Below, piece after piece: positions 2,060-50,464 of a stretch of 54,477 bases of DNA. A program made the translations under genes and the position numbers. Position 1 is the first letter of the stretch. The number at the start of each line of letters is the position of its first letter. The stretch spans positions 1 to 54,477 of the forward strand of contig JBMNQN010000007.1 in assembly GCA_050944155.1 (NCBI GenBank), given 5' to 3'. The DNA is from Candidatus Methanomethylophilaceae archaeon. Its GTDB lineage: Archaea; Thermoplasmatota; Thermoplasmata; Methanomassiliicoccales; Methanomethylophilaceae. A model generated the notes under the pieces. That model ran no database searches. It had not been told where the DNA came from and saw only the letters and a program-made list of their open reading frames with translations.

Positions 2060-3309
2060 TCAGTTTTTCAGGCATCCGGCCGAAACCACGTACACTCCGT
2101 CCGGTCTCCGGTAAGAGGGGCCCGTCGAAACGAGCACCGCAAGAAACGACGGTTCTCCGGTTTTTTCGGTGTCCACCATGTCCCTGAGTTTAAGGAGATT
2201 TTTTGCCGCGGTATCCGCTTCCCCGGAACTGAGTTTTACTTCGATTGCTCCCCATCTTCCGTCGGAAAATTCCAGAACGAAATCGACTTCGAAACCGTTT
2301 TTATTGCGGAAGAAATAAACCTCTCCTCCCAGAGATTGGGAATATACGCGCAGGTCTCTGAGGCACAGGGATTCGAAGAGAAAACCGAGAGTGTTGTAAT
2401 CCTTAAGCAGGGCATTTTTATTGATTTGCAGAGCTCCGGCAGCCAGAGACGGATCCGTGAAATGCCATTTGGGCGTAGTTACCAATCTCGTTCTTGAACG
2501 CAGATGCGGATTCCATGCACGCAGATTTTCCGTCAGGAATATGCGTTCCATGGCATCGAGATACCTTTTAACGGTTCCTTCGTTGGTTTCGCCCGCGTCT
2601 CTCATAACGGAGCGGATGCTGGCGGAGGTCGATACGTTCCTGGCCACCGATTCGATTATTTTTGTTGCAACGGAAGGATTTTTTGAACTCCGTCGACTCT
2701 GGAAAGATTGGACATAACTACGGATTTAAGATAATCCCTGACGACCTTATCTGACCTGAAACGGTCATCCGAAACTACCAAGGGCCATCCTCCGCGTAAA
2801 ATAACGTCGGCGAGCTGTTCGATTTTTGTATCGGCATATCCGTCTATTGTCTCCGATTCCAACATTGATTCGAGCGAAACTGAACCATTGGAATCTCCCG
2901 ATTCGAAGAGACTCATTGTCCTCATGCTTATTCTTGCTATCCTTCCGGCACCCGAGTGTCTTAACGGATCTTCGGGAGGGACCGAAGAACCCGTAAGTAT
3001 GAACTGTCCGTTTTCTCTCCTGCGGTCGACCTCGAATCTTATGACGTTCCATATCTCGGGAACATCCTGCCATTCGTCTATAAGCTTGGGCGTTTCTCCT
3101 TCGAGAAAAGCGACAGAACCGCTTTCCGCTGCCAATCTGAGTGATTCTATCTGATTTTTTGAAACAATGTGGATGGAGCTCTTCGAATGCTCTTCCGCGG
3201 TTCTGGTTTTACCGCACCATTTTGGGCCCTCTATAAGCAACGATCCGACACTTTCCAGATATTCGTTTATCTGCGAATCTACGATTCTTTTCAGATAGGT
3301 ATCGTTCAT
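2060..3309 (-). pseudogene. AAA_14/DUF4143-family ATP-binding protein, split by a 1-nt frameshift at an A6 tract
   Basis: Walker A GPKWCGKT, Walker B LIDEWQ, FILTGS, GGWP in 2656-3309; WNPHLRSRTRL..PKWHFTDPS, GFLFE, EVDFV..GAIEVKL in 2060-2647; one extra A at 2679-2684 joins them; collinear with the intact paralog at 49075-50346. Confidence 0.88.
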
Positions 3310-3366
3310 TATACTTTCAGATATGTACCAGTGGCATAATATTTTTTAGATTGAATTAATAGAATA

Positions 3367-3450
3367 ATGAGGTTTGTCCAACTTTCATTATGAGGTTTGT
3401 CCAACTTTCATTATGAGGTTTGTCCAACTTTCATTATGAGGTTTGTCCAA
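3367..3450. repeat. Perfect tandem repeat, 23-bp unit ATGAGGTTTGTCCAACTTTCATT x3 + 15 bp
   Basis: Units at 3367, 3390, 3413 and partial at 3436-3450; no spacers. Confidence 0.97.
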
Positions 3451-3480
3451 GTTATACAATCGGTTCCGTCCGGATTTCGG

Positions 3481-4350
3481 TTACTCTTCCGGAACCTCCG
3501 CCCCGCTGTCTTTGGCAAGATTCATCCACTTTTCCGATTCCGTTTCGTTCTTTTCGGTTCCGTATCCGTCTCTGTAGCAAATAGACACCGCGTACATGGA
3601 ATCCCCTATTCCGTTCATGGCAGCGGAAAGGAACCATCCGAAAGCCTTTTCCGGATCTTCCGGAAGTTCGGGAGAACCGGAAGAATAGAGGATACCCAGA
3701 CGGTACATTGCAAAGGCGTCCCCTTTTCTCGCTCCCTTTTCGTACCATTCCGCCGCGTACTTAACGTCCGCCTCCGTTCCGATTCCGAATTCCAGACACA
3801 CTCCGCACCGGAACATTGCGTTTATGTTTCCCGCTTCGGCTGCGATGCGGTAAAGTCTGAAGGCTTTCTCTTCGTCTTTGGGTACGCCCAGACCTTCCTC
3901 GTAAAGGTGCGCGAGACTGTTTCTGGCTTCCTGTACGCCCGCGTTGGCGGCCTGTCTGAAGAGATTTGCCGCTTCGGCATAATCCGTTTCGCCGGTCAAT
4001 CCGTCCATGAATGCGGTACCCAGGTAGAGTTTGGCTTCGGGAAGTCCTGCTTCGGATGCCGCCCGTGCGTATTCCACCGCTTTTTTCGTTTCCATATGAT
4101 AATATCCAGCGAAGTACATTTTGACAAGGAAAAGCATGGCGTCGTACTGTCCGGCCTCCGCGGCTTTTTCCAGATAACCGTAGCCCTTCTCTTCGTCCGC
4201 TTCGGTATCGAACCCGAGAACCAGAGACATACCCAGAGCGTACATTCCGTCGATGTTTCCCGCTTCCGCCATGGCCTTGACTCCGGCGAAATCCGTTTCG
4301 TACTTCCCGTTCGCGTCTTCGAATACGAAGTTCTTTTCCCTGTTTTCCAT
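3481..4350 (-). CDS. Sel1-like repeat protein
   Basis: Repeated A..LG..Y..G.G...D..KA..WY.KAA..G motifs. Confidence 0.92.
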   Translation of the reverse strand: MENREKNFVFEDANGKYETDFAGVKAMAEAGNIDGMYALGMSLVLGFDTEADEEKGYGYLEKAAEAGQYDAMLFLVKMYFAGYYHMETKKAVEYARAASEAGLPEAKLYLGTAFMDGLTGETDYAEAANLFRQAANAGVQEARNSLAHLYEEGLGVPKDEEKAFRLYRIAAEAGNINAMFRCGVCLEFGIGTEADVKYAAEWYEKGARKGDAFAMYRLGILYSSGSPELPEDPEKAFGWFLSAAMNGIGDSMYAVSICYRDGYGTEKNETESEKWMNLAKDSGAEVPEE

Positions 4351-48979: not shown

Positions 48980-49063
48980 GCGGAGGTAGCCAAGCGGTCA
49001 ACGGCGCAGGACTTAGGATCCTGTCGTAGAAGTTCGTGGGTTCGAGTCCCTCCCTCCGCACCA
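48980..49063 (+). tRNA. tRNA-Leu(TAG)
   Basis: GCGGAGG/CCTCCGC-A-CCA; anticodon arm CAGGA-CTTAGGA-TCCTG; variable arm; GGTTCGAGTCCC. Confidence 0.95.
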
Positions 49064-49074
49064 ATCCCGAAACA

Positions 49075-50346
49075 TCAGTCCCTGAGGCATCCGACGGGTA
49101 CCACGTACGTGCCGTCGGACATCGTATATGCCAGTTCTCCGCCGGTCACAACCATCCTGAATTCCGGTTTTCTGAGTCCCGCTTCTATTATCAGATCTTC
49201 CAGTTTAGAAAGATTTTCCGCGCCCAGTTTTACGTTTGCGGAACCCAGTTTGACCTCTGCTAGACAGTATCTTCCGTCTCTGAGCACGATAACCGCATCC
49301 GCCTCCAGACCGTATCTGTCGCGGTAATAGAAGACTTCGCCTCCGATACCCGAGGCGTATACTTTCAGGTCTCTGAGACAGAGGCTTTCGAACAGCAGAC
49401 CGAACGTACGGAATTCTTCGGTTATATTGTCGGGTGTTATCCCCATGTACAGGGCGGCAATGGACGGGTCTATAAGTTCTCTTTTGGGAGCCGCCCGCAT
49501 AGCTGTTCTGGATCTCACGGAAGGATTCCAGGCAGGGATTTCGTCGATTATGAAAACGTTCTTCAGAGCGTTCATGTAATCGTTGAATTTCGATTCCGAA
49601 ATGGTTACATCATGACCTACAGTATCTTCATAAATTGTTTTTGTATCAGCTAAAGAAGATATGTTTCTTGAATACGAACGTACGATTTTCTTGGCCGTAT
49701 CTACATCTTTAGCGTATTTGGAAAGCGACATATCGTCGCTTTCGTAAATGAGTTCCAGATAGCTTTCCAATTTCAATGCGCATTTACTGTATTCGAGACC
49801 TATGTTTTCCGGCCATCCGCCCCTGCATAAACAATAAGCGATGTCTCTGACCGACAGGGAAGATGTTTTTCCGTCTACTGTTTCTTTACCCGAAAAGAGA
49901 CCGCTTAAGGATACGGTGCCGTTGGAATCACCCGATTCGAAAAGACTCATCGTCCTCATGAACAGGACTCCGATTCTGCCCGCTCCGCTGTGCATATAAC
50001 TTCCCTCAGCAGGAACTCTCGATCCCGTAAGAATATAGAGGCCCGTGCGTTGCTTTTCATCGATTTCCGTACGAACTGCATCCCATATTTTCGGATACGC
50101 CTGCCATTCGTCTATAAGCCTGGGATTTTCTCCGTCCAAAATAAGAGATATGTCCGTCTGCGCAGCCAGAAGATAATCTTCCGACTTTCTCGAATCCTGC
50201 ATCTTTATTACGCTTTTAGCGTGTTTTTCCGCCGTTGTGGTCTTTCCGCACCATTTAGGACCTCTGAGAAGAACTGCACCGAAGGTATCTAAATAGAGCT
50301 GCAGTTGGTCGTCTATTTGTCTTCTAAGATAGACTTTCTTGTCCAT
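49075..50346 (-). CDS. AAA_14/DUF4143-family ATP-binding protein with C-terminal PD-(D/E)XK-like motif
   Basis: GPKWCGKTT, LIDEWQ, YILTGS, GGWP, WNPSVRS, GLLFE, EADAV..LAEVKL. Confidence 0.92.
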   Translation of the reverse strand: MDKKVYLRRQIDDQLQLYLDTFGAVLLRGPKWCGKTTTAEKHAKSVIKMQDSRKSEDYLLAAQTDISLILDGENPRLIDEWQAYPKIWDAVRTEIDEKQRTGLYILTGSRVPAEGSYMHSGAGRIGVLFMRTMSLFESGDSNGTVSLSGLFSGKETVDGKTSSLSVRDIAYCLCRGGWPENIGLEYSKCALKLESYLELIYESDDMSLSKYAKDVDTAKKIVRSYSRNISSLADTKTIYEDTVGHDVTISESKFNDYMNALKNVFIIDEIPAWNPSVRSRTAMRAAPKRELIDPSIAALYMGITPDNITEEFRTFGLLFESLCLRDLKVYASGIGGEVFYYRDRYGLEADAVIVLRDGRYCLAEVKLGSANVKLGAENLSKLEDLIIEAGLRKPEFRMVVTGGELAYTMSDGTYVVPVGCLRD

Positions 50347-50380
50347 TTACAGTGTATATATCTATATCACTACTTATTAT

Positions 50381-50464
50381 TGCTTGTGATTTGTGGTGTT
50401 TTCTGCTTGTGATTTGTGGTGTTTTCTGCTTGTGATTTGTGGTGTTTTCTGCTTGTGATTTGTG
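50381..50464. repeat. Perfect tandem repeat, 23-bp unit TGCTTGTGATTTGTGGTGTTTTC x3 + 15 bp
   Basis: Units at 50381, 50404, 50427 and partial at 50450-50464; no spacers. Confidence 0.97.

Follow-up and report, generated by a model that had tools for sequence, protein, structure and literature searches.

The closest described relatives of the locus studied here are the PDC-S01 systems (COG1373, AAA_14 plus DUF4143). The available portion of PMC12988326 describes them as an ATPase fused to a PD-(D/E)XK nuclease, very abundant, exchanged between domains and experimentally unvalidated, and ranks them as the fourth most common defence system in prokaryotes, with most such candidates awaiting validation. 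PDC-S01 is also given as the most frequent single locus in rumen genomes (PMC13356809, in the part available), and a table row of PMC3424549 places DUF4143/COG1373 among the PD-(D/E)XK families. In the literature covered, which included the main text of bioRxiv 10.1101/2024.01.29.577857 but not subscription journals, no description of upstream repeats or of DNA-sequence specificity was found for the PDC-S01/DUF4143 family. Here, we analyzed a 54,477-nucleotide stretch of DNA from a Candidatus Methanomethylophilaceae archaeon (hereafter, the window), in which an intact gene of this family, coding for a protein designated P0001, is preceded by a perfect tandem array of 23-base-pair (bp) units. 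Arrays of this or a closely related period stand before most of the homologous genes surveyed in archaea and bacteria, and their variable bases co-vary with one residue of a predicted DNA-binding helix. The array probably serves the protein of its own cassette as an operator or assembly site, read with a specificity particular to each paralogue, a reading to which we give a probability of roughly 60%.

The element and its gene are laid out as follows:

50381 to 50464, minus strand: array; its sense strand carries four CACCACAAATCACAAGCA-type cores with three GAAAA-containing linkers between them (from Tandem Repeats Finder and a repeat search, with the register taken from the family consensus)
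50347 to 50380, minus strand: gap of 34 nucleotides (nt) between array and ATG; its sense strand opens with the TATA-like ATAATAAG, a putative core promoter
49075 to 50346, minus strand: gene of P0001, intact, 423 amino acids, with an AAA_14 ATPase domain (residues ~24–137), a winged helix (~205–295), and a C-terminal DUF4143 PD-(D/E)XK-type nuclease domain
49447 to 49734, minus strand: predicted winged-helix coding region (residues 205–300), from the domain model and structural matches; helix 251–263 is the third and lies just before the beta-hairpin wing
49591 to 49593, minus strand: codon of Ser252, the residue that co-varies with unit positions 7–9 across the family

Tandem Repeats Finder (TRF) reported the array with a period of 23, 3.7 copies, 100% matches, and a score of 168. 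It spans 84 bp (3 × 23 + 15, or 3.65 identical units) and stops 34 nt short of the ATG at 50346, as the original prediction had it, and the gene downstream is indeed an open frame over its whole length. The TATA-like ATAATAAG lies at 50373–50380, immediately 3′ of the last core on the sense strand, so that the order is core, ATAATAAG, 26 nt, ATG. The units are contiguous, with no spacers between them, and an array of clustered regularly interspaced short palindromic repeats (CRISPR) was therefore rejected; a coding repeat and an RNA element were also considered for the arrays and rejected. Logan contigs from public reads break at the array. In run X17, a collapsed 53-nt repeat contig had a depth of 704 against 204 for its flanks, which by arithmetic would give one extra unit, but contig depth is an unsound measure and no conclusion was drawn from it. 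Contigs of the RNA-library run X19 span 49433–49592 and 49804–50338 and not the array, and neither transcription nor its start is shown by them. Among the assembled contigs placed on the region, none was listed as an episomal or junction form.

The protein corresponds closely to the PDC-S01 description. The PADLOC model PDLC04790 for PDC-S01 matches residues 5–421 of 423 (E 1.7e-57, 193 bits), and Pfam places PF13173 (AAA_14, E 1.4e-10) at residues 24–137 and PF13635 (DUF4143, E 3e-24) at residues 205–367, so that the AAA_14 P-loop, the DUF4143 domain, and a full-length profile match are all present. Beyond a sub-threshold AAA match, no further Pfam domain was found. P0001 contains a Walker A motif (GPKWCGKT) and a Walker B motif (LIDEW); among 18 homologues, G29, G34, K35, D79, E80, and D350 are invariant, and E364 and K366 nearly so (at least 90%). 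D350, E364, and K366 may form the catalytic motif of the C-terminal domain. Neither Pfam nor NCBIfam gave a Rep, transposase, or integrase domain, NCBIfam assigned no family, and a sequence search against the PDB returned only a spurious weak match.

The AF2/AlphaFold model of P0001 had a predicted local distance difference test score (pLDDT) of 87.8, and its best PDB matches were the archaeal AAA+ ATPases 2qen and 2fna, Orc/Cdc6, and signal transduction ATPases with numerous domains (STAND NTPases). Residues 205–300 folded alone (pLDDT 80.1) in the order helix-helix-helix-strand-strand, with helices at 11–23, 31–39, and 47–59 and strands at 63–66 and 84–87 of the domain model. Its best structural matches by VIA-align (Z 5.7–7.3) were Nur/Fur (Z 7.3), the SAMD1 winged-helix–DNA complex (Z 6.9), MepR, MecI, and the winged helix of the origin recognition complex (ORC), and the top Foldseek rows were Fur/PerR/CzrA, though weak (E at least 0.04). 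These matches, which are of moderate score, point to residues 205–300 as a predicted winged-helix DNA-binding domain.

To see how far the array is a family trait, loci were gathered from 41 related genomes, from a species-genome collection (80 loci), from metagenomes (80 loci), and from three other families (82 loci). With start codons assigned by script, TRF was applied to the 400 nt before each of them. Scoring required at least 150 nt of sequence ahead of the start, a condition that excluded ten loci from the first three sets and one from the fourth. An array of period 22–24 or 45–48 was found within 160 nt of the start in 221 of 258 homologous loci of archaea and bacteria: 22/29 for the related genomes, 66/76 for the species-genome collection, and 59/72 for the metagenomes (147/177 together), and 74/81 for the fourth set. 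In the first three sets, two loci had an array of another period and 28 had none, and in 24 of these 28 a lag of 23 still gave the best autocorrelation among lags 12–35. The remaining 683,533 nt of the same loci contained 11 arrays of those periods, at least two of which precede neighbouring paralogues. The named hosts include Bacteroidales, Clostridia, spirochaetes, Actinomycetota, Anaerolineae, Izemoplasmatales, Methanobrevibacter, and Methanomassiliicoccales-type metagenome-assembled genomes (MAGs), with proteins ~45% identical to the query. Because the trait crosses domains with unrelated transcription machineries, the cassette itself must encode whatever reads the array. Two side observations concern array form. 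In four Methanobrevibacter loci (L050, L073, L078, and L082), the arrays have a period of 46 and consist of two alternating 23-bp unit types, which suggests two site variants per repeat. In L044 and L150, whose proteins are identical, the 150 nt upstream of the start holds several short palindromes by eye.

A motif built from arrays of many paralogues, one of the checks proposed with the original prediction, revealed a shared skeleton. When 144 consensus units were rotated into a common register (positions 1–23), the sense-strand consensus was AAATTCCAAAATAAAATACCGCC, with an information content of 10.9 bits against 4.65 ± 0.05 for shuffled units (10.9 against 5.4 in a first run with 74 units). 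The skeleton consists of a core (C-G-C-C-A-A-A, about six variable bases, A-A; positions 20–23 and 1–11) and an A-rich linker (positions 12–19). The sense strand is 47% A and 13% G, and its strongest columns are C22, C23, A1, A2, A10, T12, and A13–A16. Arrays tend to begin and end with a core, and this arrangement of n + 1 cores and n linkers accounts for the frequent ".7" copy numbers (60/221). In 120 imperfect arrays, the mismatch rate was 0.01–0.07 at positions 21–23, 1, 2, and 10, 0.06–0.15 at the family-variable positions 3–9, and 0.14–0.28 in the linker, where the figure has to be read with caution as the array edges fall there. In the group L172–L182, by eye, the four cores are alike except for one base and the linkers differ.

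A role for the repeats at the RNA level, as a 5′ leader or a small RNA from the array, appears extremely improbable. Nothing was found in its favour: the sense strand would give an A/C-rich, unstructured RNA, an Rfam scan of the array regions gave no match on the arrays, and in the archaeal loci the array precedes the TATA-like box, so that a sense transcript should start after it.

The number of units is variable. Across the 221 arrays, it ranges from 1.9 to 11.1 (median 3.3), and the class of 3.6–3.8 copies is common (41/221), which makes the presence of two 84-bp arrays in one window unremarkable. The suggestion that four phased sites over 84 bp, or eight helical turns, are a design constant is not borne out: a Muribaculaceae MAG (L096) has 9.7 copies and a second locus (L111) has 4.8, with proteins 99.5% identical. 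Likewise, the array of a Bacteroidales MAG (L109) is amplified to 8.8 units, and a 71% relative has 2.4. Such variation among close strains is what a neutral variable-number tandem repeat (VNTR) would show. It is thus one of the arguments for the view that no dedicated binder exists and that a slippage-prone VNTR or a curved A-tract element adjusts the strength of the promoter through its copy number, much as in phase variation. This view could also draw on the 28 of 221 arrays that are perfect and on the two A-runs per unit, ~11–12 bp apart, in an A-rich sense strand. However, a neutral VNTR should have an unconstrained unit, and here the consensus is well above the shuffled value; the non-A positions C22, C23, G21, and T12 are kept across domains; the 23-bp lag is kept in arrays with units only ~50–65% alike; and the units co-vary with one residue of the adjacent protein. 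We consider this alternative, already disfavoured by those observations, to be very unlikely.

Perfect repetition is also far from general: 102 of 221 arrays are less than 85% matched, yet their cores are kept, and these arrays are, judging by their units, old and diverged. In an orthologue (L005, 77% protein identity), the unit is 18/23 identical by eye to that of the window, and each array is 91–100% uniform inside. This pattern supports concerted evolution by slippage or unequal exchange, which the original prediction had proposed.

An indication that the array is read by the cassette's protein comes from co-variation. For 126 proteins, non-redundant at 90% identity, mutual information with average-product correction was computed between every position of P0001 and every position of the unit (423 × 23 = 9,729 pairs). 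The top three pairs all join residue 252 to the unit, at positions 8, 7, and 9 (~1.0, 1.0, and 0.75 bits). Residue 252 lies in the first turn of helix 251–263, the third helix of the predicted winged-helix domain, and high ranks were also reached by the neighbouring residues, S250 paired with position 9 and E251 with position 6. Three residue classes follow a simple rule:

Lys252: GG at positions 7–8, in 27/38 against 1/88 of the others
Asp252 or Glu252: C at position 7, then C or G at position 8, in 26/26 against 11/100 of the others
Pro252: AA at positions 8–9, in 18/21 against 7/105 of the others

The pairings of Lys with G and of Asp/Glu with C are chemically plausible by the general rules of protein–DNA contact.

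As shared ancestry can produce such associations, phylogenetically independent pairs were drawn on supported branches of a FastTree tree built without columns 244–264. No pair went against any of the rules:

Lys rule: 10 pairs, 6.2 in the same direction and 0.0 opposite, median sign-test p 0.031
Pro rule: 11 pairs, 8.8 in the same direction and 0.0 opposite, median sign-test p 0.004
Asp/Glu rule: 6 pairs, 5.1 in the same direction and 0.0 opposite, median sign-test p 0.06

The rules were also applied to a hold-out of 50 loci fetched later, each sharing less than 90% identity with the training set and with the others. The Lys rule was followed in 2/2 against 0/48, the Asp/Glu rule in 16/18 against 3/32, and the Pro rule in 9/14 against 1/36, the Pro misses being mostly T-T-A by eye. 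The variable middle of the unit therefore behaves like a specificity determinant, as would be expected if it served paralogue-specific recognition. The proposed comparison of variable positions with residues of the predicted helix-turn-helix thus yielded, as its top pair, a residue at the start of the putative recognition helix. A further signal was seen in the nuclease domain, where residues 344–345 (49312–49317, minus strand) co-vary with unit positions 20–23 (K344 with n-G-C-C, R344 with C-n-C-A). This may reflect a second contact point or, since many scattered residues co-vary with position 23, a clade effect.

The window is contig C7 of a genome of 1,039,042 bases in 27 contigs (92% complete), which encodes McrA and an ATP-dependent DNA ligase and thus belongs to a small methanogenic archaeon. 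In this whole genome, TRF found four 23-bp arrays, of which three precede the three paralogues and one is an orphan. No further intergenic array was perfect, and the placement of arrays before paralogues is far beyond chance. One of the other paralogues belongs to a first cassette in the window:

2060 to 3309, minus strand: first-cassette paralogue, split into frames 2656–3309 and 2060–2647 (50% and 37% identical to P0001), with Gly at the equivalent of residue 252
3367 to 3450, minus strand: first-cassette array, 3.65 identical 23-bp units with a different middle and the same TRF figures as the second array

The original prediction had described the two arrays of the window accurately: both are oriented alike with respect to their genes, each contains the TGnGnTTTGT core four times, the copies are 100% identical within an array and differ in the middle between arrays, and the two 19-mers compared are identical at 12/19 positions. 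Its notion of an identical array geometry did not extend to the rest of the genome, where the third paralogue, on contig C18, has an array of 63 bp (2.7 copies, 100%) and the orphan array measures 109 bp (4.7 copies of 23 bp, 93% matched). The three paralogues carry Ser, Gln, and Gly at residue 252 and have three different middles. A further degenerate unit (67%) lies at 3341–3363, on the gene side of the first array. The frame change of the first-cassette gene at 2647–2719 could be a pseudogene or an assembly error, and the array in front of it is still perfect. A 17-nt direct repeat (82%) brackets this cassette, at 2096–2112 (inside the 3′ end of the gene) and at 3465–3481 (15 nt past the array), which could be a border duplication or chance. 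The genome also contains, at C3:53511–54108, a long array of period 72/144/216 with 69–74% identity, which has the look of a coding repeat and is unrelated to the cassette arrays.

The 18-nt cores of all four arrays were found only in their own arrays genome-wide, allowing up to 3 mismatches, except for one 3-mismatch match on C26. P0001 would thus have no other obvious high-affinity target in its host. The orphan array (C19:5905–6013, equivalent to L295:2406–2514) has the family skeleton and a TATA-like box after it, with no DUF4143 gene beside it. It sits in a 269-nt spacer between a helicase and a ligase gene; this spacer is 37 nt in the 12 congeners whose locus includes the helicase end, and neither an array nor a family gene was found at this site in any of 15 congeners (15/15).

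The cassettes appear to be mobile. The second cassette ends next to a tRNA gene, which forms its left border:

48980 to 49063, plus strand: tRNA-Leu(tag) (ARAGORN, Rfam), left border of the inserted cassette

Only 11 nt separate the 3′ end of this tRNA from the stop codon of the P0001 gene. In two congeners (G001 and G009), tRNA-Leu(tag) lies 75 nt from the start of the ferredoxin-like gene that in the window comes after the cassette, with no cassette between them, so that gene, promoter, and array (~1.4 kb) were either inserted here or deleted there. The intergenic DNA of the congeners is too diverged for a base-level alignment of empty and filled sites. A second family member (L010) has its stop codon 27 nt from the 3′ end of a tRNA-Lys (1397–1471), and in L007 a tRNA-Leu (1170–1256) lies ~240 nt from a family member. 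The family is patchy, with a homologue at E up to 1e-10 in only 14 of 41 related genomes, some of which have up to 7 matches, and it is ~45% identical across domains.

These observations could also suggest that the array acts in cis in moving or replicating the cassette, similar to iterons or transposon ends, and that the Orc/Cdc6-like ATPase-nuclease nicks or recombines there to mobilise a cassette devoid of a recombinase. The empty tRNA-Leu/ferredoxin-gene junction, the closeness of tRNA 3′ ends, the patchy distribution, and an orphan array inserted alone between two genes at a site where none of 15 congeners has one would fit this proposal, as would the pitch, since 22–23 bp is also that of plasmid iterons and of the TnsB sites of Tn7. 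Against this, the array stands at one end of the cassette only, with no inverted or direct copy at the other border (a repeat search found no flanking border repeat for the second cassette), P0001 has none of the domains of an initiator, transposase, or integrase, and the array keeps a fixed phase and distance to the promoter. We therefore regard a movement site as quite unlikely.

The lock to the promoter is seen beyond the window. In 25 related archaeal loci, an A/T-rich TATA-like box begins 0–4 nt after the last core in most cases (by eye), and array and ATG are 19–59 nt apart, with a single outlier at 134 nt. The distance from array to start codon has a median of 31 nt in the archaeal loci against 53.5 nt in the others. 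In archaea, the TATA box usually lies ~26 nt before the start, with the B recognition element (BRE) just upstream of it. With this geometry, the putative mRNA would be leaderless or nearly so, and the promoter-proximal core would occupy the position of the BRE.

The operator reading can then be phrased as a mechanism. In each 23-bp unit, one ATPase-nuclease protomer would read a core of ~15 bp through its winged helix. Conserved residues would contact the invariant bases (C-C-A-A-A and A10), and the first turn of the recognition helix (residues 250–252) would contact the variable bases 6–9, giving each paralogue a private address. As the promoter-proximal core abuts the TATA-like box, at the site of an archaeal BRE, occupancy of the array would set the transcription of the gene itself, with autorepression as the simplest case. 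Arranged head to tail, the sites would help several protomers to load cooperatively, perhaps with a dependence on ATP, and these protomers might form an oligomer on the array. Gene, promoter, and array would move together as one horizontally mobile cassette. What the data show is the array, its spread through the family, the skeleton of the unit, the residue-to-base co-variation, the predicted winged-helix fold, the abutting TATA-like box, the lack of further cognate sites in the genome, and the insertion relative to congeners; that the protein binds, with a single protomer on each unit, the sign of the regulation, a part for ATP, and an anti-phage function of the nuclease are what we infer.

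The same binding evidence would serve a model in which the array is mainly a platform for assembly or sequestration. An ATP-dependent ATPase-nuclease oligomer, nucleated by the head-to-tail sites, would be held inactive on self DNA, or primed, until infection alters its nucleotide or DNA state, and promoter regulation would be secondary. The predicted AAA+/STAND-like, Orc/Cdc6-like fold with conserved Walker and nuclease residues and the run of 2 to 11 sites, placed head to tail every 23 bp, are consistent with such a platform, as is the standing of the family as a defence candidate in the available portion of PMC12988326. However, the same source describes the anti-phage activity of PDC-S01 as unvalidated. 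In addition, the exact contact with the TATA-like box points to promoter control, and oligomerisation is itself something that we infer. On balance, a primary platform role seems unlikely to us.

Several results weigh against reading the array as an operator of the cassette's own protein. The structural matches to winged helices are only moderate, with Z up to 7.3, a range described by the tool as common. The Asn class at residue 252 shows no significant association, only a weak trend, and the Ser, Thr, and Gly classes have no clear rule, which includes the protein of the window itself with its Ser252. The same 126 loci served both to derive the rules and to test them for the first time, and the hold-out proteins, being up to 89.95% identical to training ones and of shared ancestry, are not fully independent. 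L044 and L150, two identical loci, lack both an array and a signal at lag 23. The orphan array has no gene on C19, and a pure autoregulation model does not require such an array. Finally, copy number is labile, so part of the identity within arrays is simple recent slippage.

A conserved cis element with a readable residue-to-base rule turns a family of unknown function into one that can be tested directly. Taken as evidence of contact, the co-variation would make the PDC-S01 enzymes sequence-specific DNA readers, which would constrain models of how they sense and cut, and a private address for each paralogue would explain how many paralogues coexist in one genome. The DNA signature (23-bp pitch, C-C-A-A-A core) also helps annotators to find cassette borders and orphan arrays. 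A bolder proposal is that the cassette is a self-addressed mobile unit without a recombinase, in which an Orc/Cdc6-like ATPase-nuclease loads on its private iteron-like array and then mobilises or copies the cassette, or tells self from invading DNA. We hold this to be rather unlikely; if true, the family would amount to a natural library of nucleases, each with a DNA address that is legible in its own promoter and that one or a few residues of the recognition helix could reset.

Compared with known systems, the arrays resemble the iterons of plasmids such as R6K, RK2, pSC101, P1, and F in several respects. Both are head-to-tail repeats with a pitch of ~22–23 bp beside the gene of a winged-helix protein that reads, or here would read, the array. 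In both, specificity diverges between related elements, and Rep controls its own promoter, as P0001 might. The direct repeats beside the gene of a putative binder are thus shared, whereas a Rep-family initiator is absent: P0001 has no Rep domain and is an AAA+ ATPase fused to a PD-(D/E)XK nuclease, and the cassettes are chromosomal single genes in bacteria and archaea.

Archaeal Orc1/Cdc6 and its origin recognition boxes (ORBs) offer a likeness at the level of fold only. There too, an AAA+ domain is followed by a winged helix, with Orc/Cdc6 chains among the structural matches of P0001, and the sites lie beside the protein's own gene. In contrast, the family described here has an extra nuclease domain, is also bacterial, and is present in several divergent copies in one genome, and its units are contiguous and head-to-tail, where ORBs are dispersed or inverted. 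The centromere-operators of the ParR/parC type are direct-repeat arrays upstream of the gene of their binder that serve as both platform and operator, and the TnsB sites at the ends of Tn7 are several 22-bp sites at a fixed pitch. Unlike in these two systems, no partition or transposase partner genes are found here, and the repeats occur at one cassette border only.

Finally, the C proteins and C-boxes of restriction-modification systems and the immunity groups of phage repressors share with the present cassettes, as we read them, the arrangement of a mobile defence gene with its own operator before its own promoter, as well as a diversification of operator specificity that leaves no cross-talk between co-resident systems. 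C-boxes are short inverted repeats bound by small dimers of helix-turn-helix proteins, whereas the cassettes carry 2–11 direct 23-bp units whose putative reader is the enzyme itself.

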